Below are positions 1,521 to 35,697 of a stretch of 64,000 nucleotides of DNA, piece by piece. A program made the position numbers and the translations under genes. A model generated the notes under the pieces. It had not been told where the DNA came from, made no database searches, and saw nothing but the letters and a program-made list of their open reading frames with translations. The DNA comes from Flectonema sp. DT1601 (lineage: Eukaryota): positions 1 through 64,000 of the forward strand of contig OZ025781.1 of NCBI GenBank assembly GCA_964019425.1, given 5' to 3'. Each line of letters starts with the position of its first letter. Position 1 is the stretch's first letter.

Positions 1521-2194
1521 GAACCGCTTGGCATTTAATTCTGGCACCCTGATTTTAAGAGGAAGGAAATAAAGAACACGTTAACACAGGAAAGAAAGAA
1601 TTGGCGAAGTTAAATCCGCACTATGTCTACTGATCCTGACATGTCTTGTCAAACTGGCAAAAATACGAAAAATGAAAACAAACTAACATCAGATATTCAA
1701 GTCTCAAGGTTGTTCATCCGCGATGGGGTAAACTGTAGTGTGGTACTCGAGCCTCGGAAGAGGCCCCACGGTAGTTAGCACAGTCGGGGGATGGGCGGGT
1801 GGGAAAGAACTTGGCACACTGAAGTCGTAATAGACTTCGGCCATTGTTTTTCCTTTATCCTGTACCACAAACTACAGAAGAATGAACATTAAGAGAGAGG
1901 TAGAGTGAACGCAAAGCAAACACAAAGCTAAGATGTAAATGGATAACGCAGAACATCAAAGGCGCCGAATACCATTGAGCAGTTCCCTGTGAAAAGATAG
2001 GGAACCGCTTGGCATTTAATTCTGGCACCCTGATTTTAAGAGGAAGGAAATAAAGAACACGTTAACACAGGAAAGAAAGAATTGGCGAAGTTAAATCCGC
2101 ACTATGTCTACTGATCCTGACATGTCTTGTCAAACTGGCAAAAATACGAAAAATGAAAACAAACTAACATCAGATATTCAAGTCTCAAGGTTGT

Positions 2195-5098
2195 TCATCC
2201 GCGATGGGGTAAACTGTAGTGTGGTACTCGAGCCTCGGAAGAGGCCCCACGGTAGTTAGCACAGTCTACCACCACCGCATCGCCAGTAAAGAACCTCCGA
2301 ACCGCCAGTTCAACCTCCCGCTGGTGCCGAGACGTCGATATCACCACTGGGTCCACCCTCGAAGGAATGTCAGCCGGGTTCTCCGCAGACTTAACGTACT
2401 CCAAAGAAAACGTAACGTTCCTCGCCCGCAGACAATCCAAGGCCGAAACCGTTGCCCTATTCAGCAGCTCCGAGCGTATCGACATCCTCTTCCGGGCCGC
2501 CCCAAGAACAGAGGTGTTATCCACCCAGATCTTCACACAGCAGCCGTCACAAGTCGTCGGCATGTCACGAACCGTATTTCTCAGTGCAAGGCCTTCCAAA
2601 ACACTAATGTGGAGTCCAGCTTCACCAACCACCCACGAGTCCCCCATCACCGTCACCTCCGCCGTGTCATCATTGACAACGACGCCTCCCCAACCCTTCA
2701 ACGACGCATCGACAAAGATGCTGAAAGCCTGGCATTCCGGACGGAAGGACTCGCCGACCAGCCTAAGTTGGAGCACCGCACCGATCCAACCTCGCAGCTC
2801 ACGCACAACCGAAGGCGGCACAACAACTCGATCCTCCACCACCCTCACACCCCTGTTCAATCCATTCGACACTCGACGGAGGAACTTGAGCGCGAACCAA
2901 AAGCTGCCCGGAGACACGCCCGCCACAGCCGAAGCGTGTAGCAGCCTGCCCCCGAGCGACTCCAGGTCACCAGCCGTAATCCCAACAAAATCGACCCGTC
3001 CCACCTTCTCGCGTATCTTAGACGCCACAACCACCGTGTCTGCGTCATGGTCAAAGTCGACCCCCAAGAAGGTATACCGCCTCACCGCCGTGTGGCTATC
3101 CGCTTCCTTCCAGGTCAAGCGGAACTCGGACGCAGCCCCATCCAGATTCACGGTCGCCGCCAAAACCGCTTCCTCCGTCCCCACATAACGGATGTTGTCC
3201 ACAAAAACGTCCACCTTCACACCCTTCGCCGCCCACCTACCAGATACATACACAGGATCCCCCGCAGCCGCCGCCGCCAAGGTGTGCATAATCTCAGGCG
3301 CACACGCATGGCCCATTGGCAGCCTGCACAGTTCAAACCAACTCCCCTCCGAGGTCTGGAAACGAAACAAGTCCCTCGCGTCCTCTGGTATCTCTATGGC
3401 GTAGAAGCCGGTCCTGAAATCCCTCGTCGATCCACACTGCTCCCTCACCTGTTCAAGGTACTGGGAGATGTGGCCCAAAGGAACCTTGGGCTCATAAACC
3501 CCCTCCAACCTATCATTCGCATCACGGGTCCAAAGGATAAACCGTTGTCGAAGGCCCTCCGGTTTCTCCTCCAACACTGTGAACGGCACGTTCGTCGTAC
3601 GACCCGGGCCCTCCGCCGCCCGCGCCACCCCGTGCTGACACAACTCCCTCGCATGTCGCAATGCAAATGATGATGGCGCCCGTCTACCAGCATCCGTCGT
3701 CACCGTCGGTGCAAAGGTCATATCCCACACCTCATCGAAACGTCCACGGGCCTCCTCCGAAAGACGCCTTCGCAGCCCACCGACATCCATCGTACACACC
3801 CCACTCACGTGCAGAGGTGAATGCATCTCCGTCTCAGTAACCGGCAATCGCGTCCGTTTCCCCTTCCGCACGATACTGTGTCTTGTCGCCCCTGGCACAC
3901 TCCTGATCCTCCGATTCAAAGCAGCTGTGTCACCTTCCAAGTCTGCAGCGCACGAGCCATGTCCACCAGGTTTGACGAATACCTGAGAGTCACCCCCGCC
4001 AACTGAACACCGTCCTCCTTGTGTTTCAACAGACGAGACACCAAATGCCCCTCGGCCAGCCTTCCCTCTGCCAACGCCTTCACCAGAACCGCCGCCGCGC
4101 CCCGCTTTACGGAGTGGCCCGTAAAACCCTCCATACCCGGAGTTCTTCGCCAAACCGACGCGATCCTCTCGGTGTTGACGTCCGTGAGGCGCTCGAATGG
4201 ACGAAGAAAGCGCACCAATACCGCGATTTCTCCCACCAGATCTCCGCGAATAACCGACCATCTCGAAGGCACGTAAGGATCCGCCCGTCTGTGCTTCGGA
4301 AGTGTTCCCCAATCGACGATCACCTCCCCGTCCTCTACCAACAAGAAGTGATCCGAAGTGAGAGCGTGCACCTCTCCCCACCGAGACGCGGTCTTCCAAC
4401 ACACGAGCGCCGCCAACCGGATGCGAGCCTCTTGCGAGCCTGCCCAAGTCAGCAGTTCCTGTTTGCCCATCGGCAGCGCCTGCACCCGCGGAATCGTTCC
4501 TCCCGCAGCTCGCAGCGCGCCTGCCAAGCTCAACAACGGCTGGTTCGATAATCCGAGGTGGCGAAAAATCCCCGACAAAGCCTTTGCGTACTGCAACTGG
4601 CCTTGGGACGCCACGCCCGTAGCAACCACGAACAAAGCCGCTGTCTCTGCAGACATAGGGAGCTGTTGGTCCGCCGCCCAACGCTGCAACCTTGCCCAGA
4701 GGTTTCGGCGCTTCGCAGACGTTTCCGACGCCCACATCGAGGCAATGACGACCCCTAGTCGCTCCAAGGCTTCGTCCCGATCCACTCCCACCTCCTCGGT
4801 CCGGGGCTTCCGTTGTCCAACTCCTCCGGCTACGTGCTCCAGGACTACCTGTCCGAACAACGACGGGACCTCGTCCAGACCATCTCTCCACCCTCGTTTT
4901 CGGGATGTTTTTCCAACTGACCGTCCGAGAAGGTCCGCGTCGGACGCCAACGCCTTGCGCGGCAACGTTGTTCCGACGACGACGTCCACCCGTCGCTCCC
5001 CTACCAAGCCAGCCCCCGTGCCGGCCGCCAAGCAGGCAAGGACTCAATGACCCTTGCCTGCGGGACCGTTTTTTGCTGGTCCTGTGTACGGCCTCCAA
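2195..5098 (-). CDS. E1 reverse transcriptase-RNase H (DIRS-order); 5' part overlaps the YR ORF in the -1 frame
   Basis: RDFRTGFYAI, RLPMGH, VFVDNIRY, YTFLG; RNase H motifs FVDAS..GWGG, LE, WVDN, NPADIPSR. No ATG start. Confidence 0.9.
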   Translation of the reverse strand: MEAVHRTSKKRSRRQGSLSPCLLGGRHGGWLGRGATGGRRRRNNVAAQGVGVRRGPSRTVSWKNIPKTRVERWSGRGPVVVRTGSPGARSRRSWTTEAPDRGGGSGSGRSLGATRGRHCLDVGVGNVCEAPKPLGKVAALGGGPTAPYVCRDSGFVRGCYGRGVPRPVAVRKGFVGDFSPPRIIEPAVVELGRRAASCGRNDSAGAGAADGQTGTADLGRLARGSHPVGGARVLEDRVSVGRGARSHFGSLLVGRGRGGDRRLGNTSEAQTGGSLRAFEMVGYSRRSGGRNRGIGALSSSIRAPHGRQHREDRVGLAKNSGYGGFYGPLRKAGRGGGSGEGVGRGKAGRGAFGVSSVETQGGRCSVGGGDSQVFVKPGGHGSCAADLEGDTAALNRRIRSVPGATRHSIVRKGKRTRLPVTETEMHSPLHVSGVCTMDVGGLRRRLSEEARGRFDEVWDMTFAPTVTTDAGRRAPSSFALRHARELCQHGVARAAEGPGRTTNVPFTVLEEKPEGLRQRFILWTRDANDRLEGVYEPKVPLGHISQYLEQVREQCGSTRDFRTGFYAIEIPEDARDLFRFQTSEGSWFELCRLPMGHACAPEIMHTLAAAAAGDPVYVSGRWAAKGVKVDVFVDNIRYVGTEEAVLAATVNLDGAASEFRLTWKEADSHTAVRRYTFLGVDFDHDADTVVVASKIREKVGRVDFVGITAGDLESLGGRLLHASAVAGVSPGSFWFALKFLRRVSNGLNRGVRVVEDRVVVPPSVVRELRGWIGAVLQLRLVGESFRPECQAFSIFVDASLKGWGGVVVNDDTAEVTVMGDSWVVGEAGLHISVLEGLALRNTVRDMPTTCDGCCVKIWVDNTSVLGAARKRMSIRSELLNRATVSALDCLRARNVTFSLEYVKSAENPADIPSRVDPVVISTSRHQREVELAVRRFFTGDAVVVDCANYRGASSEARVPHYSLPHRG
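3916..5031 (-). CDS. E1 tyrosine recombinase
   Basis: Catalytic residues: KTASRWGE (R), PKH (K), GHSVKRG (HxxR), LLKH (H), TLRY (Y). Confidence 0.9.
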   Translation of the reverse strand: MAAGTGAGLVGERRVDVVVGTTLPRKALASDADLLGRSVGKTSRKRGWRDGLDEVPSLFGQVVLEHVAGGVGQRKPRTEEVGVDRDEALERLGVVIASMWASETSAKRRNLWARLQRWAADQQLPMSAETAALFVVATGVASQGQLQYAKALSGIFRHLGLSNQPLLSLAGALRAAGGTIPRVQALPMGKQELLTWAGSQEARIRLAALVCWKTASRWGEVHALTSDHFLLVEDGEVIVDWGTLPKHRRADPYVPSRWSVIRGDLVGEIAVLVRFLRPFERLTDVNTERIASVWRRTPGMEGFTGHSVKRGAAAVLVKALAEGRLAEGHLVSRLLKHKEDGVQLAGVTLRYSSNLVDMARALQTWKVTQLL

Positions 5099-7131
5099 CC
5101 AGTCCTCGGCACCATTGCCGGTCCCGTAGTCGTCTTTCTCACAGGCTTCACTTGCATACCGGCCTTCCTTGCCTTCGCCGTCGACTGGTCCAACTCCTCC
5201 TCACCCAATTGTTGAAGGTATCTCTCTCCGCCCAACCATCCATGCCCAGCCCTAATCGACTGGTACTCCAACAACCGGTGTAGCTCCTTGAGCGTCGCAC
5301 CTGTTCCTCCCGCAATTGTTGCCATTGCAGTTTCGGCCAACCTGCTCACCATCTCCTTCCCAACCGACGATGTACCCACCGAATATCTTTGCACAATTGC
5401 CTGTTGCAAGAAGTCGCGCTGCATTTATCCCTGCTCCCCGTAAGCTGCCCACTCTCCAGGCAAGACCGCCACCTGCGTCACCGGCCTCTCTGGCCCCATT
5501 TTCTCCGGGTTCCAATGACCAACGGTCCAGCCCTCATCCTCAAACTGTTCCGGTGTCAGCTCGAACATGGCATCAGCCTTCCCAACCAACACAAGAGTCA
5601 CCTTCTCCCCCTCCAAATCCACAACCATCCCCTTGTTCCCTACCCTCCGCACCTTCACTCCTGGAATCAGTGCCTTTGGGAAACGTACATTCTTCTCCTT
5701 CTTCCCTGCCACATGCTCCACCAAACTCCCCGTGCTGTTGGCAAAGCGCCCAATAGCTTCGGCCAACCCTTCAGGTGCCTGTTCTCTCTGCTGAAATTGG
5801 TGTTGAAACTGTTGTGTCTGTTGCTGTAACTGCAGCTGCTGTTGTAAATGCTGCTGCTGTTGTACCTGCTGCTGCTGTTGTAAACTCAACTGCTGCTGCA
5901 ACATGTCACATCGCTTTTGAAGTCCCACCAGGTCCTCCGCCTGTGGTGCCGCCGCGAAAGACTCCGCTTGCTGTTGATTCGCTAGCGTCTGTTGATGAAC
6001 CTGCTGCTCCAACTGACGCTGTTGATTGAGCATCGAATCCAAAATAGCCTGCTGCTCCCCAGCCTTCTTGAACTGTTCCTTCTGCTCCGCTACCAATCTC
6101 TCCTGATGTAGTTGCTGTTGTTCCAACAAGGCTTGCTGTTGCAGGTGCTGGTTCCTCCGAGCTTCTTGGTGCCCATCCTGGGACGCGAGCATTTTGTCCA
6201 CTGCCCGCTGCCGCTCGGCTTGTGAACGCTCAAACGCGGCGCGATCCTTCTGCTGCTGCAAAAGCTCTTGCTGCTGCCTTTCCAGCATTCCCTGCTGCAC
6301 CAACAGTCTCTTCCGCTGTTCCTCCCCCTGTCGCCCCACCTCCTCCATTATGGATGCGACCTCCTCCTCCGTCTTCACCTGTCGTGAGCAGACCTCGTCC
6401 ACCACCAAACCGGCATGATCTTGCCATTCCCCCACATCGTTGAGCGCCCTTGCCGCAGCCGCGCCCACTTCCTTCACCTCCTTCAACGACTCCGCAGCCT
6501 TCTGTTGCTCCGTCTGCACTTCAGTAAAAGCAGCCGAGGTTGCCGCAATCACCTTCTCCACCCTCTTTTCTGTCTTCATCTGGCCAGCCGTTTGCTGCTG
6601 CAAGGTGGCCATGTTCTCCTTCCGGAGCCTACCCACCGCCATACTTGTGGCCTTGGCAAGCCCAACAACTTCAGGGTTCCGCAAAGAAGCATCATCCTCC
6701 AACTGCGGTGGCGTTATCCCATCATGGGGCTCCACCACCGTTACAACGCCCCTCAAAGGCGTCAACACCCCAGGCTCCCCTGGCAGCAGTTGAGCCTTCA
6801 TCATTCTTTCTTTGAATGGCCCTGGTGCCTTCTCCGCCAGCATCGTCAATATGACGAATACCGCTCGCGCCGACAACACAGGCAGCGTGCCCTCCGCCAC
6901 GTCCAAGCAGCACGCCAGCAACCGATCGTTGCTCTTCCTCCTCCCGTCCCGGTCGTCCTCCTTCGTTGTAGCCAACCAAATGAGGTTGGCCTCTGCCTCA
7001 CCCAGGCACCTCACCAACACCCCCTGCCTATAGGTCAGGCTCACCTTCGTCCGGGTCAGTTGGCCCAGAATCGGCCGCAAGTTCTCTGCCAAAGAACTTG
7101 GCACACTGAAGTCGTAATAGACTTCGGCCAT
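5044..7131 (-). CDS. E1 gag-like coiled-coil protein, interrupted by an in-frame TAA at 5425-5427
   Basis: ORFs 5425-7155 and 5044-5424 are contiguous in one frame. Homologous to E2 gag across the stop (GWTVGHWNPE / GWSVQHWNPE; AIVQRYS / AIVERYS). ATG at 7131 (MAEVYYDF, compare E2 MAKSYDF). Confidence 0.8.
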
Positions 7132-7286
7132 TGTTTTTCCTTTATCCTGTACCACAAACTACAGAAGAATGAACATTAAGAGAGAGGTAGAGTGAACGCA
7201 AAGCAAACACAAAGCTAAGATGTAAATGGATAACGCAGAACATCAAAGGCGCCGAATACCATTGAGCAGTTCCCTGTGAAAAGATA

Positions 7287-7384
7287 GGTTTGCGGGTTTG
7301 CGGGTTTGCGGGTTTGCGGGTTTGCGGGTTTGCGGGTTTGCGGGTTTGCGGGTTTGCGGGTTTGCGGGTTTGCGGGTTTGCGGG
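7287..7384 (+). repeat. (GGGTTTGC)n, ~12 units between E1 and E2
   Basis: Direct reading. Confidence 0.99.
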
Positions 7385-8299
7385 GAACCGCTCTGCATTT
7401 TCTATGCGATATCTGCTATAGAAATGTAAAAGTAATAATGAAATAGAAAACAGAGAGGGAGTAAGCAAGCAATTAATACTAAAGGAGAATGACGGAATCC
7501 AATTAAGGATAATTGAAATTGATCAGCTATATCGAATTCTGACATGCCGTCGTGTCTCATCCATAAAGTATATCGCAGCTGTGATGGGAGATGATGGTTG
7601 TGAATTATAGTAATCGATAATTGAAGTATTGTCCACGTACGAAGTATATTCATTTGCGACGGGGGTAGCAGGGCGCCACAGAGGCGAAATCGTCCGGACC
7701 AGGCTGCGAAAGGCATGCATGGCCACGGGACGGGGGCGCCGTCACGGGGGTCGGGTGGGTGGGAACAAAAAAGTTGTTTTCTTTAAAGCAAAGCCAGCCA
7801 AACCTGAAAGTAGAAAGAACAATATTCACCAGAGAATAACGGCGAAATAAAGTAAAATCTCTTTACAAGAAGTCGGCGCCAAGCGCTAAATCAAGGCTGT
7901 GATATCGCTATGCCATTTGAGCTGTTCCCTGTAAAGGTGAGGGAACCGCTCTGCATTTTCTATGCGATATCTGCTATAGAAATGTAAAAGTAATAATGAA
8001 ATAGAAAACAGAGAGGGAGTAAGCAAGCAATTAATACTAAAGGAGAATGACGGAATCCAATTAAGGATAATTGAAATTGATCAGCTATATCGAATTCTGA
8101 CATGCCGTCGTGTCTCATCCATAAAGTATATCGCAGCTGTGATGGGAGATGATGGTTGTGAATTATAGTAATCGATAATTGAAGTATTGTCCACGTACGA
8201 AGTATATTCATTTGCGACGGGGGTAGCAGGGCGCCACAGAGGCGAAATCGTCCGGACCAGGCTGCGAAAGGCATGCATGGCCACGGGACGGGGGCGCCG

Positions 8300-11056
8300 T
8301 CACGCCACCACCACATCGCGAGTCAAAAATTCCTGCACCGCAAGTTGGACATCACGCATATGAGCAAGAGAGTCTATCTTGCAAGGCTCAATGCGTGATG
8401 GGAGGTCGGCTGGGTTCTGTGCAGAAACGATGTATCTCATCTCAAATGAAATCTGTCGTTCCCTAAGAAATGTAATGGACTGAACTACTGCATCATTAAG
8501 TCGGCGGCATCTCATAGACATCCGCTTGCGCGCAACGCCCAAAACCGATGTGTTGTCAATCCAGAACGCCACAGACCGCCCGTTGCAAGAATCCGGCAAT
8601 GCCACAACAGTATTCCTGAGAGCCAGTGCCTCCAGAATATTAATATGTAGCGACTGCTCAGACGGCCCCCAGGAGTTCCCAAGAACGGTCACCTCAGCCG
8701 TCGCATCGTCAACGATCACACCCCCCCAGCCACGAAGCGAGGCATCGATAAATACAGTAAAGAGCTTCTCCTGGTGGCTGAAAGGTTCGGAAATCAACCT
8801 CCCATTAACCGCTTCATTTGACCATGATGCCAGCTCTCTCTGAACAGACCGTGGTATCCGTACAACATCAGAAGGTGCCCGTCTGCCGCTATTCAGGCTG
8901 TTCGAAATCCTTCGGATGAACTTCATCGCAAACCAGAAAGCCCCTGGTGAGGTGGCCGAGATAGCGGAAGCATGCATGAGACGGCCCCCAAGGGACTCGA
9001 TCGCACCTGCCCCCATCGATAAGAGGTCACACTCCATGATCTTCCTCCTAATCTTCTCACTGGCACGAACCTCATGGCTGCCATGGTCGAAGTCAACGCC
9101 AAGAAATGTATACTTCTGGGCCGCCGTATTGCTATCGGCCGGCTTCCATGTCAGGTTACAGCGATCAGCAGTCTCGTCCAAATTATAGGTCGCCGCGAGC
9201 ACAGCGCCAGAATCACCAGTGTAGCGAATGTTATCAATGAAGATATCAACATCCACACCAGTCGCTGCCCACCCATCACTCACATAAGACGGATCACCAG
9301 CTGCTGCCGCCGCAAGCGTGTGCATGACTTCGGGAGCACACACATGCCCCATCGGCAGACGGCAGAGCTCATACCACAACCCGTCGGCTGCACGAAAGCG
9401 AAAAAGGTCACGCGCATCCTCTGGTATTTCAATGGCATAGAACCCGGTCTTAAAGTCCCTCGTCGTGGCACACTCAGCCCTCACGGAATCGAGGTAACCA
9501 GAAACGTGCCTGAGCGGAACCTTCGCCTTGTACAGCCCCTCTGCCCAGCGGTTCGCATCCCTCGTCCAGAGGATAAACCGCTGCCTCAGCCCCTCCGGCT
9601 TCTCCTCCAACACCGTGAACGGGACATTCCCTGATCGCCCGGGCCCAATCGCCACCCGAGCAACCGAGTGTTCAACAAGGAGGCCAGCATGCTCCGACGA
9701 TAAAGATGATTCGGGAGGTTGCCTGCGCCTGCCAACTACAGGGTAGAAAGTCATCTTCCAAACTGTGTCAAACCTCTCCCTCGCATCAGCTGAAAGGCGG
9801 CTGCGCAATCCCTGAACATCCATCGGCTCAATCGACCCCACGTGAAGAGGCGACCTACGTTCCCCCTCCGTCGCCGGAATACGTGTCCTCTTCCCCCTGC
9901 GGGCAATGCTATGCATCGAAGTGCCACGAGCGACGTTCCTACCCAGCGCAGTATACACATCCGCCCTACTCAAAGCAATCTCGTCACCTTCCAAGTCTGG
10001 AGAGCGCGTGCCGTGTCGACTGCATTCGAGCTGTACCTCAGCGTCGTTTGCGATATCGCCGGCCCTCCTTCCGAGTGCTTCAGGAGGCGAGACACCAGTA
10101 CCGCATCGGTAATCCTCCCATCTGCGAGGGCGGCCATCAGAACGGATGCCGCACCTCTTTTTATGGAGTGCCCTGTCAACCCTTCCATCCCAGGGACCTG
10201 TTGCCAGTGGTGCGCAATCCTCCCTGTTGTTGCCTCCGCGAGGAGGTCGAACGGGGACAGAAGCCTGACGAGAGCTGCAATCTCTCCCACCAAATCGCCC
10301 CGGATCACCGCCCACCTCGAAGCGACGTACGGGTTCCCGCGGCGGTGCTTCGGCAGGACCCCCCAATCCACAATCACCTCCGAGTCTTCGACCAAAATGA
10401 AGTGCTCTGATGTCAAGAGGCGCACCTCCCCCCAGCGAGATGCCGTCTTCCAGCAAACGAGAGCCGCCAGCCTCAGCTCCGGTCCCAGTTGCCGCACCCA
10501 ACCTAGCAGTTGCTGCCTCGTCATCGGCCTTGCCTGCGTCACCGGAATCGACGCACCGTCCGTCCTCAAAGCGCCTGCGAGACTTAGAAGGGGCTGGTTC
10601 TCCACTCCCAGGTGACGGAAGACACCCGACAGTGCCTTGGCATACTGAAGTTGCCCCTGGGGGCGGACACCTGTTGCCACGACGAATAGAGCCGCGGTCT
10701 CGGCATCGACGGGGAGCCCTCGCGACCGAGCCCATCTCTCCATCCTTCCCCAGAGGTTGCGTCTCTTCGACGTCGTCTCTGTTGCCCAGAGGTTGGCAAT
10801 CACGATCCCGAGCCTTTCTAGAGCCACGTCGTAGTCGACGTCTGCCTCCCCAGTTCTTCCGGTATCGTGCTGCTCCCTGGCAATGTGCTCCAGCACAACC
10901 CTTCCAAAGAGCGATGGGATGCCCGGCGAACCCTTTGTAGCTGTAGTCACTACCACTGGGTGCCCACACCCGCCGGACCCTTGTCTTGGGGACATCCTCA
11001 TAACGCTGCCAACCAGTGCCCCGTAGCTGGCTGGTTTTGTGGGGGCAAGGATTCAT
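8300..11056 (-). CDS. E2 reverse transcriptase-RNase H
   Basis: RDFKTGFYAI, RLPMGH, IFIDNIRY, YTFLG, FIDAS..GWGG, NPADLPSR. Confidence 0.9.
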   Translation of the reverse strand: MNPCPHKTSQLRGTGWQRYEDVPKTRVRRVWAPSGSDYSYKGFAGHPIALWKGCAGAHCQGAARYRKNWGGRRRLRRGSRKARDRDCQPLGNRDDVEETQPLGKDGEMGSVARAPRRCRDRGSIRRGNRCPPPGATSVCQGTVGCLPSPGSGEPAPSKSRRRFEDGRCVDSGDAGKADDEAATARLGAATGTGAEAGGSRLLEDGISLGGGAPLDIRALHFGRRLGGDCGLGGPAEAPPREPVRRFEVGGDPGRFGGRDCSSRQASVPVRPPRGGNNREDCAPLATGPWDGRVDRALHKKRCGIRSDGRPRRWEDYRCGTGVSPPEALGRRAGDIANDAEVQLECSRHGTRSPDLEGDEIALSRADVYTALGRNVARGTSMHSIARRGKRTRIPATEGERRSPLHVGSIEPMDVQGLRSRLSADARERFDTVWKMTFYPVVGRRRQPPESSLSSEHAGLLVEHSVARVAIGPGRSGNVPFTVLEEKPEGLRQRFILWTRDANRWAEGLYKAKVPLRHVSGYLDSVRAECATTRDFKTGFYAIEIPEDARDLFRFRAADGLWYELCRLPMGHVCAPEVMHTLAAAAAGDPSYVSDGWAATGVDVDIFIDNIRYTGDSGAVLAATYNLDETADRCNLTWKPADSNTAAQKYTFLGVDFDHGSHEVRASEKIRRKIMECDLLSMGAGAIESLGGRLMHASAISATSPGAFWFAMKFIRRISNSLNSGRRAPSDVVRIPRSVQRELASWSNEAVNGRLISEPFSHQEKLFTVFIDASLRGWGGVIVDDATAEVTVLGNSWGPSEQSLHINILEALALRNTVVALPDSCNGRSVAFWIDNTSVLGVARKRMSMRCRRLNDAVVQSITFLRERQISFEMRYIVSAQNPADLPSRIEPCKIDSLAHMRDVQLAVQEFLTRDVVVA
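9970..11001 (-). CDS. E2 tyrosine recombinase
   Basis: KTASRWGE, GHSIKRG, LLKH, TLRY. Confidence 0.9.
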   Translation of the reverse strand: MRMSPRQGSGGCGHPVVVTTATKGSPGIPSLFGRVVLEHIAREQHDTGRTGEADVDYDVALERLGIVIANLWATETTSKRRNLWGRMERWARSRGLPVDAETAALFVVATGVRPQGQLQYAKALSGVFRHLGVENQPLLSLAGALRTDGASIPVTQARPMTRQQLLGWVRQLGPELRLAALVCWKTASRWGEVRLLTSEHFILVEDSEVIVDWGVLPKHRRGNPYVASRWAVIRGDLVGEIAALVRLLSPFDLLAEATTGRIAHHWQQVPGMEGLTGHSIKRGAASVLMAALADGRITDAVLVSRLLKHSEGGPAISQTTLRYSSNAVDTARALQTWKVTRLL

Positions 11057-12453
11057 TTTCCCCTGCCCAACTGCCCGTTTTTTGAACTTGGAACATACGC
11101 CCTTGGAGGAGCAGCCGGTGGCCCCTTATGGGTCGCCCCCACCCGGTGCCCCTTCGACACTTTCTGCGCTGCCTTCCTTGCCTGCGCTGTCGACGGGGTA
11201 TCCCTCGCAGCATCAAGGGTTTCGTAGTATGCTTCAGCTCCCCGCGGCCCGTTCTCTGTGCGCAGCAGCTGCCACTCCATCATCTGGTGTAGTGCCGCTA
11301 TGGCCCCTTCCGTACCTCCCAAAACAGCCCTCTCAACTGCATTCGCAAGCCTCTTCACTACCTCACTCGCAACTGCCCCAGAGCCCCCGGAATACCTCTC
11401 AACAATCGCGCGCCTCAGCAGCGAACGGCACACGTCATCACGCTCCGCATATCCCAGCCACAACTCCGCATTCCTCGCGATGTCCTCAACAGGTGCATGC
11501 GACGCGGCAATTTCCGGGTTCCAATGCTGCACCGACCAGCCCCCTGCCCTGAACTCCTCTGGTGTGAGGCGCCACAGCCCACTGTCGTTGTGCAAGACTG
11601 CAATCGTCACATCAGCCGGTGCCACGCAGACAACAATCCCTCTTGAGCCTCCGTCCGTAACCTTGGAGCCTACCACCATGCTTGGAGGAAAACCCTCTGT
11701 TACCTGTGGCTTTGTTGCAGCTTGCTGGATCGCTGCCGTAATGGAGCTCATCATTGAGTCCTGATCCGTCCTAACCGGCGGTGGCCCTTGTGGAACAACT
11801 TGCGGCCTTCCCATACCTGCCTTCAGGGTTTCAATCTCACCTTCCAGTCGTGCCATCACGGACTGCTGCTGCTGAACGAACCCCTGCATCATCTCCTCCA
11901 TCCGTGTCTGGCGGGACTCCGCTTCCGTCATGTGCCGCCTTGTCGATTGCGCACCGCGATGTAGATCCGCAAACGCCTGACCAGCCTCGCTCCTCAGTCC
12001 TTGGATCTTCTCTTCGCCTTGGCGTAAGCTCTCAGCCGTTGCCTTCCTCAACACATCAGTGTCGACGCGCAAACTCTCCATTGCATCCGCAGCTTCATCA
12101 TGGGTCACCAGGCGGTTCGAATCCCCCGAAGCCAGGCGACTGCTTGCCTTCGCAGCCCGCTCCGCAACGCCGGCCCTATTCACCGAAGACATCATTGCCA
12201 ACACTACCAACATCTTTTTGATTGAAACCTTTTCAATCGCTGCATACTGCACCCCAAGGCAAAGGGCAACAGTAAGCCTAACCAGGCTCTGCAACTCCCT
12301 ATCGGACTCCAACAAAGCCAAGTCAACTGGTATTGGTACAAGCTTCACCAACTTCACCAAGTCAACGTGCTGTCTTTGCGGAACTTCTCCGACCCTCCGT
12401 CCCCATGCCTCAGCTAATGCTGACGGGAACTCGAAATCGTAGCTTTTTGCCAT
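11053..12453 (-). CDS. E2 gag-like protein
   Basis: First ORF of the element, ATG 46 nt after the spliced-leader junction, similar to E1 ORF1. Confidence 0.8.
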   Translation of the reverse strand: MAKSYDFEFPSALAEAWGRRVGEVPQRQHVDLVKLVKLVPIPVDLALLESDRELQSLVRLTVALCLGVQYAAIEKVSIKKMLVVLAMMSSVNRAGVAERAAKASSRLASGDSNRLVTHDEAADAMESLRVDTDVLRKATAESLRQGEEKIQGLRSEAGQAFADLHRGAQSTRRHMTEAESRQTRMEEMMQGFVQQQQSVMARLEGEIETLKAGMGRPQVVPQGPPPVRTDQDSMMSSITAAIQQAATKPQVTEGFPPSMVVGSKVTDGGSRGIVVCVAPADVTIAVLHNDSGLWRLTPEEFRAGGWSVQHWNPEIAASHAPVEDIARNAELWLGYAERDDVCRSLLRRAIVERYSGGSGAVASEVVKRLANAVERAVLGGTEGAIAALHQMMEWQLLRTENGPRGAEAYYETLDAARDTPSTAQARKAAQKVSKGHRVGATHKGPPAAPPRAYVPSSKNGQLGRGK

Positions 12454-12499
12454 TTAAAAAACAAAAAAGTTGTTTTCTTTAAAGCAAAGCCAGCCAAAC

Positions 12500-12537
12500 C
12501 AATAAAGTACAGAAACTGTAGCTTTAGAATCGTTGGT
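12500..12537 (-). other. Reverse-transcribed spliced leader (38 nt) ACCAACGATTCTAAAGCTACAGTTTCTGTACTTTATTG
   Basis: Has the conserved euglenozoan SL 3' end CAGTTTCTGTACTTTATTG and a diplonemid-type 5' part. Joined exactly at the AG acceptor visible in the unspliced A2 copy (7804-7805). Confidence 0.9.
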
Positions 12538-13013
12538 AGACACCGCCCACATCTTTCTTACGATGGCGCGTACCCGCTTCTCTGCTGCCTTTATGGTGAC
12601 TTCGTCTTCTGATTGAGTCCTTCTTGTTGGTCTGCGTTGCAAGATCTGTAAAGTTGCTTGCTCCATTATTCCTTTTCCTTTGACCAACTCGTCTTGCCGC
12701 ATTTTGGCGATCATGCTCCCGGTTTTTTTGCTTAATAAAGTTATACTTGGCCGGGTCCAAGTAAACTTCCTTTCCCGTACTGCGATTCAATTTTTCCGCA
12801 CCTGCTGGGGCCAACGGCCTGGACCTAAAAAAGCCTTCGTTGGCTTTGGTTTCGGGGTCCAGGTGTTCTTATTTTTCTTCGAAGCTTTTTGAATTGACCT
12901 GTCGATGTAGTCGTGTTGATTGGCTTCCATTTCCGTCAATACATCGCTGAGCCTGGCCCCCCGTACAACATATCCTTGTTGTACACGAAGCAGCGATAGA
13001 CTCCTATTTCCCA
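12534..13013 (-). repeat. 480-bp duplication of an internal E3 segment (16006-16485)
   Basis: Sequence identity on reading; ORF fragments identical to the E3 gag end and YR start. Confidence 0.95.
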
Positions 13014-13469
13014 TTGGTTTAGGGAGGGTGGGAATTTTAAATTATTAAATTAATTTAAAGATGCAAGAATGCCTGGAAAGGCAGATAGGCATAAACGAAT
13101 CAATCGTAATGCACTATAAAAAGGATGGAAGAAACAAATGGTCGTATTATACTATAGGCTCGACGAATCAATCATGTTGCACTATAATAAAATAAATGGT
13201 AAGACTGCTCACATTAAGAACTGATAAGACAATGGATTGCTACATAGAAATTTGTATCATAAGAATAAAGTGGTGAACTACAGCGCTGATCCTGAGAGAT
13301 TCCCATATTGGTGTTAGGGGAATCACTTTTTTAGGATCAGCCATAGTTCTGGTATGGAACTTTTGGGAGTAGAAAGTAAGATGAAGCAAGTTATAAAGAT
13401 ATAACCTTGCAAAACTGGAATGTATACATGTACTAAAAGGAAAAGACTTGATAACTCATTCTTTCAATT

Positions 13470-16286
13470 TTATCTGCAGATGCTTTCTTTATTCTTACCC
13501 ATTAAGACAAAGAATAAATAACTAAGAATGGAATATTGATTACCACCACCCCCACGCAAGTCAAAGAAACGCCCCAACGCAAGTGCTGCCTCGGAACGTT
13601 GTTGTTTGATATTAGCGCCGTCAGGACAAATGCGAGACGGAAAATCTGCTGGATTGCATTTTGTAGAAACCCAGTTGAGCCTATAAGTGCATTGTAGTCT
13701 ATTAAGATGATTCATAATGTAATTTACTTGTCTGTTGAGTGCCATGGAACGGACTGACATGCCCTTCTTTGTTGAGTATAAGACGGTTGTATTATCCACG
13801 TAAATATCCAAATGTGATGCTTTCGAGATCGATCGAAGCGTAGAAGTAAGAGCAGTGGCCTCAAGGACGTTGATATGCTCACTACTTTCCTTCTCAGTCC
13901 ATCGTGCCCCCAGGATGTCCATCTCATAATTATGATCAAAGATCACAGCTCCCCAGCCCTTCATGGAAGCGTCGACGAAGATCATCCTAGAATCATCATC
14001 ATCATCATCTCTCTTCGTTTCCCCTACATGTACGTTCCGTGTTGTTAGTACCTCCTTAGACCAGTTTGAAATTTCCTTCCTAACTGAGCTGGGGATGGGC
14101 ACCACGTGTTCAGTCTGAACGACCCCACGGTTTAATGAATTCGTGACCCTGCGAAAAAACTTTAGCGCAAACCAGTATTTACCAGGATGTATGTGAGTAA
14201 TTGCCGAAGCATGTAGGAGGCGACCAGCTAAGCTTTCGATCTTCTCCGCGGTGATGTTATCGAGGCAAGTATTAAGTATCCTCCTGCGTAGCTTTTCGGC
14301 GACGGCAACAGTACACCTAGTATGGTCAAACCTTACACCAAGAAAGTCGTATTCTTTAGCGAGTTCCTGAGTTTCTTCTTGCTTCCAAGTCACGTTACAA
14401 CGTCTCGCCACCTCATTTATTCTTGCTGTTGCCTCATTTACACACCCGAATGAGCCAGTTATCCTGATATTGTCAATCCAAATATCGGTAACTACCCCCC
14501 GATATGTGAAAGCAGGCTTGGCAAATGTAGGATCGCCTGCAACAGTTGCTGTTAGAGAATGCATAATCTCAGGTGCCGCCATATGTCCCATCGGCAACCT
14601 GGTTAGCTCAAACCACTCCCCTCGCTCATCCTGGAATCTGAAATATTTCCTAGAGCGCTCAGGTATGGAAACCTGGTAAAACCCCGTCTTCAAGTCCCAT
14701 TGGGATGATGTCTCCCTCGTCACTTGAGAGAGGTACTGAGCAATGTGCTCCAAGGGAACCTTCGGCTTGTACCCGAGTTCGTGCATCATCAAGTTGGCCT
14801 CCTTCGTCCACAAGATGAATCGCTGCCGTGTTCCAGTTATCCGTTCTTCAAGTATTGTAAAGGGTATTGATTCCAATATCCCGGGGCTGCTTGTTTGGGT
14901 TGCAACCCCTGCCTCTACTAGCCGGCGTGCATGCTGAGACTGCAGACAAGACTCCCTATGACTCTTTTTATACTGATGGCTTTGGTGAGTACCTTGCCGA
15001 CACGGGTTGAACGTAAGGTCCCATACCTCTTCAAACCTCCTGCGTGTCCCATCAGTCATCATCCGTTTTACCTCTTGAACGTCAATGGTCCCCACTTCCT
15101 TTACGTGTAGAGGCGTCGCCCTCTCTTCCTCGGTTGAAGGGAGGCGAGTGGTCTTCGACTTCCGAGTGAAGTTCTGCATAAGTCTCCGCGCAGTTCTTGG
15201 AATTACAAATGTTGGGTTATGCGGCTTGTGTTCAGGGAGAGAGCCAGCGACCTGTCCGACCCTGCATATCTTAACGTCGTTTCTGATATCTGCTGGTTTG
15301 CCGTTTCGTGTTTGGCTAGTCGACTTATGAGCATCAGCGGAATAACTAATCCTGTCTGTTTCTTCTCGAAAATGAACTTTATTGCACCGCGTTTTATGCT
15401 GTGAGCACTGTAATTTTCCATGCGAGAATCCTTCTTCCAAAGTCCTGTGAGCTTTGCAGTGTCGACTTTTGTTAAACGATCGAAGAATCCCAACCTCATG
15501 ATGGCTCTGTATATCTCCTCCGTCCATCTTCCGGTGATTACCGCGAACCTTGAAGCCGTGTACGGATTCTCCCTCTTTCCCTTCGGAATCTGGTTCCAGT
15601 CCACAATTACTGTTAAAGGGTCGCATTGAATGAAGCTGCCCGAGGACAGCGCCGCGACCTCCCCCCAGCGAGACATTGTTTTCCAGGCAATCATTGCGGC
15701 GGTTGAAACCCCTAGCTCCTGTGTTTGACACCATTCTTCCAGGATTCCCCTTGGGATCGGAGTTGCTTGTGACTCGGGCACCGTAGCACCGTCTGCCCTT
15801 AGGGCCACCTGAAGGCTCCTGAGGGGTTGGTTTTCCATCCCGAGGTGTTTCATAATACCCGACAATGCCTTTGCGTAGTTTAGTAAACTTTGTGACTTCG
15901 CCCCTGTAGCGGTTACGAATAAGACCGCAGAATTTGCATCCATGGGTAGGCTCCTGTCGGTGACCCACTTCACATACCTCGACCATAATCGTTTTCTCTG
16001 GTCGATGGTAGACACCGCCCACATCTTTCTTACGATGGCGCGTACCCGCTTCTCTGCTGCCTTTATGGTGACTTCGTCTTCTGATTGAGTCCTTCTTGTT
16101 GGTCTGCGTTGCAAGATCTGTAAAGTTGCTTGCTCCATTATTCCTTTTCCTTTGACCAACTCGTCTTGCCGCATTTTGGCGATCATGCTCCCGGTTTTTT
16201 TGCTTAATAAAGTTATACTTGGCCGGGTCCAAGTAAACTTCCTTTCCCGTACTGCGATTCAATTTTTCCGCACCTGCTGGGGCCAA
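13470..16286 (-). CDS. E3 reverse transcriptase-RNase H
   Basis: WDLKTGFYQV, RLPMGH, IWIDNIRI, YDFLG, FVDAS..GWG, NPADFPSR. Confidence 0.9.
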   Translation of the reverse strand: MAPAGAEKLNRSTGKEVYLDPAKYNFIKQKNREHDRQNAARRVGQRKRNNGASNFTDLATQTNKKDSIRRRSHHKGSREAGTRHRKKDVGGVYHRPEKTIMVEVCEVGHRQEPTHGCKFCGLIRNRYRGEVTKFTKLRKGIVGYYETPRDGKPTPQEPSGGPKGRRCYGARVTSNSDPKGNPGRMVSNTGARGFNRRNDCLENNVSLGGGRGAVLGQLHSMRPFNSNCGLEPDSEGKEGESVHGFKVRGNHRKMDGGDIQSHHEVGILRSFNKSRHCKAHRTLEEGFSHGKLQCSQHKTRCNKVHFREETDRISYSADAHKSTSQTRNGKPADIRNDVKICRVGQVAGSLPEHKPHNPTFVIPRTARRLMQNFTRKSKTTRLPSTEEERATPLHVKEVGTIDVQEVKRMMTDGTRRRFEEVWDLTFNPCRQGTHQSHQYKKSHRESCLQSQHARRLVEAGVATQTSSPGILESIPFTILEERITGTRQRFILWTKEANLMMHELGYKPKVPLEHIAQYLSQVTRETSSQWDLKTGFYQVSIPERSRKYFRFQDERGEWFELTRLPMGHMAAPEIMHSLTATVAGDPTFAKPAFTYRGVVTDIWIDNIRITGSFGCVNEATARINEVARRCNVTWKQEETQELAKEYDFLGVRFDHTRCTVAVAEKLRRRILNTCLDNITAEKIESLAGRLLHASAITHIHPGKYWFALKFFRRVTNSLNRGVVQTEHVVPIPSSVRKEISNWSKEVLTTRNVHVGETKRDDDDDDSRMIFVDASMKGWGAVIFDHNYEMDILGARWTEKESSEHINVLEATALTSTLRSISKASHLDIYVDNTTVLYSTKKGMSVRSMALNRQVNYIMNHLNRLQCTYRLNWVSTKCNPADFPSRICPDGANIKQQRSEAALALGRFFDLRGGGGNQYSILSYLFFVLMGKNKESICR
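15203..16186 (-). CDS. E3 tyrosine recombinase
   Basis: KTMSRWGE, AHSIKRG, LAKH, TLRY. Confidence 0.9.
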   Translation of the reverse strand: MIAKMRQDELVKGKGIMEQATLQILQRRPTRRTQSEDEVTIKAAEKRVRAIVRKMWAVSTIDQRKRLWSRYVKWVTDRSLPMDANSAVLFVTATGAKSQSLLNYAKALSGIMKHLGMENQPLRSLQVALRADGATVPESQATPIPRGILEEWCQTQELGVSTAAMIAWKTMSRWGEVAALSSGSFIQCDPLTVIVDWNQIPKGKRENPYTASRFAVITGRWTEEIYRAIMRLGFFDRLTKVDTAKLTGLWKKDSRMENYSAHSIKRGAIKFIFEKKQTGLVIPLMLISRLAKHETANQQISETTLRYAGSDRSLALSLNTSRITQHL

Positions 16287-17605
16287 CGGCCTGGACCTAA
16301 AAAAGCCTTCGTTGGCTTTGGTTTCGGGGTCCAGGTGTTCTTATTTTTCTTCGAAGCTTTTTGAATTGACCTGTCGATGTAGTCGTGTTGATTGGCTTCC
16401 ATTTCCGTCAATACATCGCTGAGCCTGGCCCCCCGTACAACATATCCTTGTTGTACACGAAGCAGCGATAGACTCCTATTTCCCAAGCTAACCATTTCAG
16501 GCATCCCCTCCCAGGAGTTTACCTGTTCTGCCACCCTAATCCAGTCTACAAGCATTTCGAAATATGCGAGTAGTACTCGGTCACCTGGTTTGACGGTGGT
16601 ACAACCGTTGGTGTATTTAAAACGCAAGTCTCTAATGAGACCGGTCGCGTCCTCCTCAATGGCATCTTTCCATTGTAAGACATCCTTCGAGTCCTCGATT
16701 CTCTTAGTTGTAAAGAAAACCTTCGTTTGTGTTGGGGACGTCTGTAATGTGGGAGCATCCTCCGGAACATTTCTGTTTGCAATTGCCGTCAGCCTGTCCA
16801 CTCGTTCGTCCGAAGCGGCAGATTGTTCGAGCCCCGTCACCGATTGAGAGGTAGACCTCTTCGCGGCATTCTCCAAACTCTTCAAGATCCTGTCGATCTT
16901 TTTATCCTGGGCTACAGCCATTTCACGATTTTCGGTAATGGCCCCCCGCATCTTCGCCATCTCCGAATGTTGATCCCTGATCGCTGAATCAGTCATCCCA
17001 GCCAAATTGCTTGTATTCTGGCCTTGGCGAGATAATTCGTCGGCAATAATGGCGTGTCCCTGCTCCAATGCCTGTTGACGGTTTCTCACGTTAACAGTTT
17101 CATGCTCCAATACAGTCTGTCTCTGCCCCGCTGAATTCAAAGCTTGCGAGGTAACTTGTTCAAGAACCGCTTGCCTCTGCACGGTGTTTGATACCACTTG
17201 GCTCGCACCCTCCATAACATGGTGAAACTCCGTACGGGAGACGGGTAAACCCTCCGTCACCCCACATGCTCGTAGCATTTCATCGAATCTCTGCACATTC
17301 CTGTTTCGCAGATGTGAGAGCATAACTTCCTTTGGCCTCATCGCTATTCCTTGCAACGAGTCTCTCGAAACACCCAGGAAGGCCATCAACATATCATTAA
17401 TGATGCTCTCAGCTTGATGCTGTACACACCATCCCCCTAAGTTCATTCTTACGTCATCCATTTTGTATGTACCTCGTTTTAACTCCTCTTCGCCGAAAGT
17501 GCTTTTCCAAGCATCTTCCAAACTTGAAGGAAATCTAAAATCGTACGTACTTATTACAGTCGAGGGGGATGGTTGGTCGATTATCATAGGCGTTTGTTGA
17601 TCCAT
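16259..17605 (-). CDS. E3 gag-like protein
   Basis: First ORF; N-terminal YDFRFPSSL matches the YDF.(F/V)PS motif of E1/E2; coiled-coil character. Confidence 0.78.
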   Translation of the reverse strand: MDQQTPMIIDQPSPSTVISTYDFRFPSSLEDAWKSTFGEEELKRGTYKMDDVRMNLGGWCVQHQAESIINDMLMAFLGVSRDSLQGIAMRPKEVMLSHLRNRNVQRFDEMLRACGVTEGLPVSRTEFHHVMEGASQVVSNTVQRQAVLEQVTSQALNSAGQRQTVLEHETVNVRNRQQALEQGHAIIADELSRQGQNTSNLAGMTDSAIRDQHSEMAKMRGAITENREMAVAQDKKIDRILKSLENAAKRSTSQSVTGLEQSAASDERVDRLTAIANRNVPEDAPTLQTSPTQTKVFFTTKRIEDSKDVLQWKDAIEEDATGLIRDLRFKYTNGCTTVKPGDRVLLAYFEMLVDWIRVAEQVNSWEGMPEMVSLGNRSLSLLRVQQGYVVRGARLSDVLTEMEANQHDYIDRSIQKASKKNKNTWTPKPKPTKAFLGPGRWPQQVRKN

Positions 17606-17887
17606 TTTAAATTATTAAATTAATTTAAAGATGCAAGAATGCCTGGAAAGGCAGATAGGCATAAACGAATCAATCGTAATGCACTATAAAAAGGATGGAA
17701 GAAACAAATGGTCGTATTATACTATAGGCTCGACGAATCAATCATGTTGCACTATAATAAAATAAATGGTAAGACTGCTCACATTAAGAACTGATAAGAC
17801 AATGGATTGCTACATAGAAATTTGTATCATAAGAATAAAGTGGTGAACTACAGCGCTGATCCTGAGAGATTCCCATATTGGTGTTAG

Positions 17888-18476
17888 GGTTTGCGGGTTT
17901 GCGGGTTTGCGGGTTTGCGGGTTTGCGGGTTTGCGGGTTTGCGGGGTTTGCGGGTTTGCGGGTTTGCGGGTTTGCGGGTTTGCGGGTTTGCGGGTTTGCG
18001 GGTTTGCGGGTTTGCGGGTTTGCGGGTTTGCGGGTTTGCGGGTTTGCGGGTTTGCGGGTTTGCGGGTTTGCGGGTTTGCGGGTTTGCGGGTTTGCGGGTT
18101 TGCGGGTTTGCGGGTTTGCGGGTTTGCGGGTTTGCGGGTTTGCGGGTTTGCGGGTTTGCGGGTTTGCGGGTTTGCGGGTTTGCGGGTTTGCGGGTTTGCG
18201 GGTTTGCGGGTTTGCGGGTTTGCGGGTTTGCGGGTTTGCGGGTTTGCGGGTTTGCGGGTTTGCGGGTTTGCGGGTTTGCGGGTTTGCGGGTTTGCGGGTT
18301 TGCGGGTTTGCGGGTTTGCGGGTTTGCGGGTTTGCGGGTTTGCGGGTTTGCGGGTTTGCGGGTTTGCGGGTTTGCGGGTTTGCGGGTTTGCGGGTTTGCG
18401 GGTTTGCGGGTTTGCGGGTTTGCGGGTTTGCGGGTTTGCGGGTTTGCGGGTTTGCGGGTTTGCGGGTTTGCGGGTT
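17888..18476 (+). repeat. (GGGTTTGC)n, ~73 units
   Basis: Direct reading; one GGGG variant near 17943. Confidence 0.99.
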
Positions 18477-23400: not shown

Positions 23401-23997
23401 AATTTAAAAACCGGCGGCTCCACACAAAGTTTTGAAAAACTGGCAGCTCCACACAAAATTTTGAAAAACTGGCTCCACACACAAAGTTTAAAAAAACCTG
23501 CGAAAACTGGCAGCTCCACACAAAGTTTCAAAAAACTGGCAGTTCTACGTTCAAAATTTGAAAAAACCGGCAGCTCCACACAAAGTTTTGAAAAAAAACT
23601 GACAGCTCCACTCACAAAATTTTAAAAAACCAGTAGCTCCATACAAAGTTTTGAAAAAAAACTGACAGCTCCACTCACAAAATTTTAAAAAACCAGCAGC
23701 TCCATACAAAGTTTCAAAAAACTGGCAGTTCCACGTTCAAAATTTGAAAAAACCGGCAGCTCCACACAAAGTTTTAAAAAACCAGAAACGCACAAAATTT
23801 TAAAAAACCGGCAGCTCCATACAAAGTTTCAAAAAACTGGCAGTTCCACACACAAAATTTAAAAACCGGCGGCTCCACACAAAGTTTTGAAAAACTGGCA
23901 GCTCCACACAAAATTTTGAAAAACTGGCTCCACACACAAAGTTTAAAAAAACCTGCGAAAACTGGCAGCTCCACACAAAGTTTCAAAAAACTGGCAG
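20468..23997. repeat. AT-rich satellite, ~28-33 bp monomers (AAAAACYGGCAGCTCCACACAAAGTTTT) in higher-order blocks
   Basis: Direct reading; identical blocks recur (e.g. 21363, 22254, 22646, 23319, 23774). Confidence 0.97.
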
Positions 23998-24093
23998 CGG
24001 GGTTTGAGCCGAGGCCGATTGGGTGCGGGGGCACCACCCCATCCACTGCACTATGACGCCCCCCAAATATGCCGTATTTTATTTATTTATACC

Positions 24094-30304: not shown

Positions 30305-30417
30305 CAATAAAGTACAGAAAGTACAGAAAGTACAGAAGTACAGAAGTACAGAAGTACAGAAGTACAAAGTACAGAAAGTACAGAAGTACAGAAGTACAGA
30401 AGTACAGAAGTACAGAA
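30305..30417 (-). repeat. SL 3' end (TTTCTGTACTTTATTG) preceded by a tandem run of (T)TTCTGTAC, ~13 units in all
   Basis: Last 16 nt are identical to the SL at 12500-12515. Confidence 0.85.
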
Positions 30418-30486
30418 GAACACCTTTTCGAAAACTTATTTATAAATAAAAATTGCAGAAAAGTAATAATAATAAAAAGTTGCGAT

Positions 30487-31005: not shown

Positions 31006-31025
31006 TGCGGGTTTGCGGGTTTGCA

Positions 31026-35030: not shown

Positions 35031-35697
35031 GTTTCTGCACCGACCTTCCATCACACATGAGCCTTGCAAGATAGACTCTCTTGCTCATATGCGTGATGTC
35101 CAACTTGCGGTGCAGGAATTTTTGACTCGCGATGTGGTGGTGGCGTGACGGCGCCCCCGTCCTGTGGCCATGCATGCCTTTCGCAGCCTGGTCCGGACGA
35201 TTTCGCCTCTGTGGCGCCCTGCTACCCCCGTCGCAAATGAATACACTTCGTACGTGGATAATACTTCAACTATCGATTACTATAATTCACAACCATCATC
35301 TCCCATCACAGCTGCGATATACTTTATGGATAAGACATGAGACACGACGGCATGTTAGAATTCGATATAGCTGATCAATTGCATCCTTAATTGGGTTCCG
35401 TCATTCTCCTTTAGTATTAATTGCTTGCTTACTCCCTCTCTGTTTTCTATTTCATCATTACTTATACATTTTTATAGCAGATATCGCATAGTAAATGCAG
35501 AGCGGTTCCCTCACCTTTACAGGAAACAGCTCAAATGGCATTGCAATATCACAGCCTTGATTTAGCGCTTGGCGCCGAGTTCTTGTAAAGAGATTTTACT
35601 TTATTCCGCCGTTATTCTCTGGTGAATATTGTTCTTTCTACTTTCAGGTTTGGCTGGCTTTGCTTTTAAAGAAAACAACTTTTTTGTTCCCACCCAC
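35031..35697 (+). mobile_element. Diverged 3' fragment of the E2 family (RT end, B1, A2, start of spacer)
   Basis: Reverse complement of ~7755-8430 (EPCKIDSLAHMRDVQLAVQEFLTRDVVVA). Ends CCCACCCAC, followed by degenerate GGTTTGC units. Confidence 0.9.

Follow-up and report, generated by a model that had tools for sequence, protein, structure and literature searches.

Tyrosine-recombinase elements and their target arrays

The window analysed here, the whole 64,000-nt stretch at positions 1 to 64,000 of contig OZ025781.1 from Flectonema sp. DT1601, contains several tyrosine-recombinase (YR) elements. Three of them, E1, E2, and E3, each comprise three ORFs, namely gag-like, YR, and reverse transcriptase/RNase H (RT/RH), the last overlapping the YR ORF, with terminal repeats designated A and B. 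The 5' end of E2 carries spliced leader (SL) sequence, and the features concerned are as follows.

12500..12537, minus strand: SL exon nt 2-39, with nt 2-5 common to the E3 fragment
12460..12499, minus strand: A1', the 40 nt of repeat A past the acceptor (40/40), forming most of the E2 gag 5' UTR
11053..12453, minus strand: E2 gag-like ORF, 466 aa, open, ATG at 12453, assigned by position only
9970..11052, minus strand: E2 YR ORF (Cre profile match, E 9e-7; model pLDDT 95.9)
8300..11125, minus strand: E2 RT/RH ORF, overlapping the YR ORF
7941..8304, minus strand: E2 B1 repeat, 364/364 identical to B2
7764..7940, minus strand: E2 A2 repeat, unspliced, acceptor AG at 7805-7804
7747..7763, minus strand: C-rich linker of E2; the cDNA strand has four G-tracts
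7383..7746, minus strand: E2 B2 repeat, normal array junction with geometry as in E1, no poly(A)
7287..7384, strand not applicable: (AAACCCGC)n target array, about 12 copies
419-1520, 17887-18476, 31010-31030, and 31665-31682: further (AAACCCGC)n arrays
1522..7285, minus strand: E1, complete A1...B1-A2-B2, the reference for normal junctions, with a premature gag stop
12534..13013, minus strand: duplicated internal E3 fragment (gag 3' end/YR 5' end), 480/480 identical to 16485-16006
13014..13033, minus strand: E3 C-rich linker, at which E3 is cut off, B2 missing
13034..17889, minus strand: E3 (A1 17889-17604, gag, YR, RT/RH, A2 13319-13034)
35040..35697, plus strand: E2-family 3' remnant, 95% identical, with unspliced A (AG 35646-35647), cut inside the linker
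30305..30420, minus strand: second SL-derived end, where an APE-RT LINE begins that runs to about 24190

E2 extends from 12499 to 7383 on the minus strand, and all three of its ORFs are open. A reading made earlier from the sequence alone had identified it as a YR element, and this was borne out by the Cre profile match of the YR ORF, by the similarity of its structural model to Cre/Tre in a Foldseek comparison with known structures (E 5e-6), and by the profile match of the RT/RH ORF to solved RT/RNase H chains (best E 4e-11); E2 is a YR retroelement. The YR model and the PDB profile match were obtained with a 75-sequence alignment, a three-sequence input giving a pLDDT of 35.8 and no PDB match, and Pfam Phage_integrase was found in 11 of the 75 aligned YR relatives. 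The gag-like ORF contained no CCHC box, and Pfam, which scarcely detects even the RT of this element, returned no methyltransferase domain.

The host had been placed among the diplonemids, and the protein comparisons agreed: a kinase encoded in the window was 75% identical to a Flectonema neradi protein, followed by Diplonema proteins at 43-46%. The RT search gave 70 matches in all, and every match bearing an organism name (18/18) was to Diplonema papillatum. Among the nearest atlas clusters of the RT/RH protein with a known source, Euglenozoa was the commonest. An RT-alignment search of metagenome and viral contigs yielded no related loci.

Normal element ends all lay within (AAACCCGC)n arrays. 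The target junctions, including the left junction of E3, fitted a cut at AAACC^CGC with a shared CC, although a target duplication is hard to tell in a tandem repeat. The arrays are a position-specific target common to several YR families that are divergent from one another, with RTs 43-60% identical; this recalls the insertion of TATE in telomeric repeats. Two further elements were seen: E4 (18477-20427, plus strand), a 5'-truncated RT/RH with B1-A2-partial B2 in the opposite orientation, and E5 (31025-31665, minus strand), a solo A-linker-B unit flanked by octamers, like the SIRE derivative of VIPER.

A linker beginning CCCACCC followed every A2 (1786-1803, 7746-7763, 13014-13032, 20229-20253, 31262-31272, and 35689-35697), and on the cDNA strand those of E1, E2, and E4 fitted a G-quadruplex pattern of four tracts. 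Upstream of B1, a GGTGGTGG-type stretch was seen at 8304, 2261, about 13545, and 19850. Both E3 and the 35-kb remnant are broken at the linker; the linker and the GGTGGTGG-type stretch could possibly represent priming signals or a fragile site. A fold-back priming model was unsupported, because the minimum-energy RNA fold of B1-A2-linker left the G-rich stretch before B1 unpaired with the C-rich linker. An Rfam scan of the window gave no match. Elsewhere in the window, a satellite of ~29 nt occupied 20476-23998, and the 31893-63125 region carried long host ORFs that lie on the same strand and show few evident introns, encoding a BspA-type LRR protein with 75-nt repeats, two kinases, and VWC/pacifastin, PAN, and rhodanese proteins.

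The spliced leader at the 5' end of E2

Sequence comparison revealed that 12537-12500 (minus strand) corresponds to SL nt 2-39, a 38-mer with the 3' end TTTATTG. The proposal that E2 begins with a 38-nt SL therefore stood as regards the identity of the leader and needed amendment at its 5' end, where SL nt 1 is absent and nt 2-5 (ACCA) also belong to the upstream E3 fragment. Directly downstream, 12499-12460 (minus strand) and 7803-7764 of the internal A2 of E2 were identical at 40/40 positions, plus a shared G. Both A2 and the 35-kb remnant carry these 40 nt directly behind TTTCAG, so the positions previously given for the AG of the unspliced repeat (7804-7805 and 35646-35647) were correct. 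This AG is the last of six YAGs in the E2 A repeat and lies behind a pyrimidine-rich stretch; the ATG of the 466-aa ORF follows 6 nt past the 40 nt, which places the acceptor AG 46 nt upstream of the ATG. The identity of the 38-mer and the 40/40 match to repeat A together confirmed that the SL is joined at the element's own AG. The nearness of the last YAG to the A end (38-67 nt in E1-E4) was not counted as statistical evidence because YAGs are frequent.

The 38-mer was then compared with known leaders. When the 19-mer at the SL 3' end was searched with up to three mismatches (<=3), two matches were found in the window against 0.04 expected. The leader labelled 'Euglenozoa 14' we take to be that of Diplonema. 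It agreed with the 38-mer at 36 of 38 positions compared by eye in the part of the table of PMC3795323 that was available. In an independent sequencing run (X1), one 68-nt record consisted of 13 other bases, the SL exon, GT, and 15 other bases; its depth was 14.3, compared with 2-3 for E2 records, which fits a multicopy SL gene. An exact 29-nt SL pattern gave 54 metagenome matches at 52 loci, with GT directly after the exon in 32/54, and several of these GT-type loci adjoined U1, U2, U4, U5, U6, 5S, or SRP genes. The D. papillatum SL genes, as far as PMC10161547 was accessible, likewise have a 39-bp exon, similar neighbour genes, and multiple copies. Of the remaining metagenome matches, 18/54 lay behind a viral-type promoter motif and 4/54 were of other kinds, three of these near a contig end; apart from the SL itself, none of the 52 loci resembled YR elements. 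The 38-mer at the 5' end of E2 is a real spliced leader.

The locus is not an SL RNA gene: GT follows the exon, but the next 40 nt are repeat A, unlike the gene flanks in X1. Instead, the arrangement is that of a relict SL, lying in DNA at the predicted acceptor of its parent element. A capture of part of an SL RNA gene at the DNA level, joined to A via the GGT shared by donor and acceptor with no RNA step, would produce the same join. Because the SL gene and the acceptor both read G followed by GT at this point, the junction sequence alone does not discriminate, and SL genes are multicopy (PMC10161547, in the portion available; X1 depth). However, the captured piece would have to begin within five bases of SL +1 and stop exactly at +39, at the last YAG before gag, and it includes no gene flank; we consider such a capture very improbable.

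A second SL-derived end lies in the same window. The LINE is full-length (30305-30428 and 24182-24210), and its 5' end consists of a reiterated SL octamer followed by the exact SL 3' 16-mer, which occurs in the window only there and at E2, and the octamer reiteration suggests RT slippage on the SL. This LINE is flanked by 8-nt direct repeats and carries a poly(A) tail, as expected of LINE-type retroposition; its ORF1 cluster has 20 members. Because the LINE as well as E2 begins with SL sequence, it is likely that, within 20 kb, reverse transcription has brought SL sequence into the genome on two occasions.

The database matches also contained SLs in cis within giant-virus-like DNA. The motif AAAA(A/T)TGA, ending 18-19 nt before SL +1, accompanied 18/54 metagenome and 10/11 viral-collection matches, mostly just before an ATG, and GT followed the SL in 0/18 of the promoter-motif metagenome matches. 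SLs in cis were found at L001-L019 (on IMGVR_UViG_3300046534_001516 and two other IMG/VR contigs) and at L023, L025, L026, L030, L031, L038, L040-L042, L046-L048, L050, L058, L061, L067, L069, and L070; a 237,777-bp contig carried nine SL copies and a VLTF3 gene, neighbours included Bro-N, KilA-N, and TFIIS genes, and the SL of L014 was of kinetoplastid type. Giant-virus-like DNA thus encodes the euglenozoan SL in cis, which suggests that viruses of diplonemids mimic host mRNA 5' ends; our literature search found no report of a virus-encoded euglenozoan SL. The first 55 bases of L035 (minus strand) form a contig end with two tandem SLs, as if a euglenozoan transcript carried a relict SL of the dinoflagellate type.

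Rearrangement with E3 and origin of the SL-capped copy

Upstream of the SL lies the 480-bp E3 fragment, beyond which E3 ends at its C-rich linker and its B2 is gone. At the fragment junction, the SL 5' end matched E3 at 7/8 positions, the first four bases being shared exactly; allowing up to one mismatch (<=1), the SL 5' 8-mer matched 7/4876 E3 positions, the junction among them. Homology at the linker-side junction was limited to 1 checkable nt because there is no intact E3 B2 to compare. The right end of E2 and the left end of E3 have the target geometry of intact E1. Since E2 carries an E3 fragment, a full B2 at the array, and an E1-like target junction, and has neither poly(A) nor a target duplication of the LINE type, it is the product of a three-junction rearrangement rather than of LINE-type retroposition. 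The extra C at the right end of E2 was considered as a mark of a chimeric circle and dropped because intact E1 ends alike. In another E3 copy (P0182), a deletion was rejoined within 5 nt of the start of the duplicated fragment (16480-16485 of the window), hinting that this E3 breakpoint is recurrent.

The view that the copy records reverse transcription of the spliced RNA accordingly survives in part: an RNA-derived origin of the SL end is by far the simplest reading, but E2 is not the plain retroposed copy that had been envisaged, the rearrangement with E3 having been overlooked. The SL end is most likely an aberrant product of cDNA repair or recombination. We propose, with a probability of roughly 0.6, that RT copied a trans-spliced E2 RNA through the SL and that the cDNA was then patched or recombined into a tandem E3/E2 locus. 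Trans-splicing of E2 RNA would have come first, at the AG that lies 46 nt before the gag ATG. RT would then have failed to hand over from the 40-nt A1' to A2, continued into the SL, and halted within its first five bases. The free cDNA end would have primed on E3 at the 7-of-8 match, copied 480 nt from E3 RNA or E3 DNA, and been joined at the E3 linker, with loss of E3 B2, the inter-element array, and the outer A1 of E2. A resident copy would probably have supplied the 3' part of E2, whose junction is of the normal YR type.

Both ends of the SL piece coincide with mature exon ends, and SL-gene flank is absent, as could be judged because X1 shows the flank sequence. Methylation of the SL, if present in diplonemids, may stall RT. 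In trypanosomes, the first four SL nucleotides are methylated (PMC4783070, in the section available). In the case of DIRS-1, linear single-stranded cDNA builds up and the RT works in trans; however, transformed DIRS-1 cDNA was not integrated in wild-type cells, from which the authors inferred that there is no homologous-recombination route (PMC7192593, as far as accessible), and this counts against a recombination origin of the E2 SL end.

Protein clusters showed that other E2 copies exist. An E2 RT fragment on a contig listed as 779,553 bp had R364, as in the window, whereas the three other cluster members had K, and it starts with MNIVL, a frame that the window encodes only in unspliced A repeat. 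A 779,553-bp contig also encodes E1 with the same gag stop as the window, the link between E1 and this E2 fragment being made through the equal listed size and protein translations only. These translations suggest that an E2 with unspliced A was resident next to E1 and may have acquired its SL end later.

The same evidence bears on a different history, in which the whole of E2 would be a new insertion from one SL-capped RNA, either array-primed on a read-through transcript or placed there by the recombinase as a chimeric E3/E2 cDNA circle. The RNA would in that case have been spliced at A1 yet left unspliced at the identical A2 acceptor. Such an insertion would explain the three open ORFs, the 364/364 identity of B1 and B2, and the normal target junctions at both outer ends of the E3-E2 composite, and the strand polarity suits synthesis from the array toward the SL. 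However, a single circle requires an additional E2-B/E3-A crossover, and R364 and MNIVL favour an earlier resident E2 with unspliced A. We regard a new insertion as unlikely.

The search of sequencing runs returned X1 and no RNA run. No read or contig of X1 spanned the SL-E2 junction; X1 takes in most of E2 and little of E3, and its gaps prove nothing. Its records passed from gag into unspliced A at a depth of 2-3, with no SL branch. The missing spanning read would also be expected if a library or assembly chimera, through extrachromosomal cDNA or a misjoin, had set SL-E2 beside E3; in that case spliced RNA would remain the source of the SL-E2 DNA, which would not be chromosomal here. The density of near-identical repeats in the region favours such a chimera, as do protein-cluster contig assignments that conflict with the window gene order. 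Against it, three precise junctions are required, one with 7-of-8 microhomology, and misassembly of genomic sequence alone cannot create the SL join. Furthermore, arrays of 74 and 138 near-perfect octamers were resolved, from which we infer that long reads lie behind the assembly. A chimera thus seems improbable, and copying of spliced RNA followed by patching into the E3/E2 locus is preferred. Four host or LINE proteins of the window were found on a 122,834-bp contig with no E1- or E2-cluster member, and the exact E2 RT of the window was not in the protein collection, from which 5 of the 10 proteins queried were absent. Because of the E1- and E2-free contig and the absent RT, another haplotype or assembly may differ at the E2/E3 locus.

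Messenger, template, and known systems

The sequence-only reading had further argued that trans-splicing removes the part of A1 needed to rebuild the circle junction, so that one and the same RNA cannot serve as mRNA and as replication template. This does not follow, because the spliced 5' end retains 40 nt of A homology and the internal B1-A2, in which the circle junction is kept, can restore the lost outer part. Relative to the gag ATG, repeat A ends at +40 in E1 (inside gag), +2 in E3, and -7 in E2; because A reaches approximately the gag start in 3/3 full elements, any splice that leaves gag translatable leaves A on the mRNA. DIRS-1 rebuilds its ends from an incomplete transcript through an internal copy (PMC7192593, in the text available), and the spliced E2 RNA may also be the element's ordinary template.

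We tentatively extend this to diplonemid VIPER-like elements in general, which might replicate from the trans-spliced mRNA itself. The A1 splice acceptor would then stand in for the transcription start of an LTR, with the ~40 nt of A on the mRNA serving as an R-like strand-transfer region; RT would hand over before the SL, or the SL would be trimmed, and the identical A2 acceptor would be skipped. The E2 copy would be a hand-over failure preserved in the chromosome. The other possibility, to which we give somewhat less than an even chance, is that the unspliced full-length RNA is the template and the SL-capped mRNA a dead end copied by accident only. It is in keeping with C. elegans Cer1, whose 8-kb gag-pol RNA is not trans-spliced whereas a subgenomic RNA is (PMC3315495, in the part available). 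In the template, the identical acceptor of A2 must in any case go unused, strand transfer would be impeded by an SL tail of 39 nt that lacks homology, and the sole SL-bearing copy is aberrant. On the other hand, given where A ends, some A homology is always left on the spliced RNA, an incomplete transcript is enough for DIRS-1 to restore its ends (PMC7192593, same text), and RT evidently reached spliced RNA.

The spliced-template and unspliced-template models are near even. Because host trans-splicing would cut the element RNA inside its own terminal repeat, the element must either evade the spliceosome or exploit it. The SL-capped E2, present as one copy in the 64-kb window, marks the predicted acceptor at single-base resolution, indicates that RT can copy spliced RNA, and makes the template question testable; one aberrant copy does not settle the mechanism. 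In the literature examined, replication of split-direct-repeat YR retrotransposons was not shown, and the experimental work found concerned DIRS-1.

In our search of the openly accessible literature, no SL-capped genomic YR element was found, and a term search of the PMC10161547 supplements available, a set that perhaps lacks an additional repeat file, returned nothing on one. The sources compared below are cited for the portions accessible to us. Closest in organization are the kinetoplastid VIPER and TATE elements (PMC6681497, PMC12278014), which share with E2 a gag-like ORF followed by overlapping YR and RT/RH ORFs, although gag is assigned in E2 by position only. Like the elements of the window, they have A1...B1-A2-B2 split direct repeats of similar size, complete in E1, with only the last 40 nt of A1 kept in E2, and the insertion site of TATE is likewise a fixed position within a short tandem repeat. 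E2 differs in its diplonemid host, in its target (AAACCCGC instead of the telomeric hexamer), and in having SL and 40 nt in place of A1. Among the 70 and 78 RT matches of a word-limited search, none was to a kinetoplastid VIPER or TATE.

DIRS-1 (PMC7192593) resembles E2 in its incomplete transcript, its linear single-stranded cDNA without a left end, and its internal copy of the circle junction, but it has inverted repeats with an ICR instead of split direct repeats, and the 5' end of its RNA is defined by where transcription starts, not by trans-splicing. The retrotransposon Cer1 (PMC3315495), like E2, carries an SL acceptor and resides in a host that trans-splices; unlike E2, it is an LTR/Gypsy element whose full-length RNA skips the SL1 site, with no genomic SL-capped copy described in the portion available. 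SLACS, CZAR, and CRE (PMC12278014) are also retroelements adjoining SL sequence in euglenozoan genomes, but they are non-LTR elements with a restriction-like endonuclease inserted inside SL RNA genes, whereas E2 is a YR element with the whole SL exon upstream and no SL gene context.

SL relics of retroposed mRNAs are well known in dinoflagellates (PMC6050394), where, as in E2, SL in DNA marks a reverse-transcribed trans-spliced RNA. In E2, however, the parent is the retroelement itself and not a host gene, poly(A) and a target duplication of the LINE type are lacking, and the 5' end is fused by microhomology to another element. The SL-capped YR copy is a real, uncommon variant of these retroposed-SL relics.
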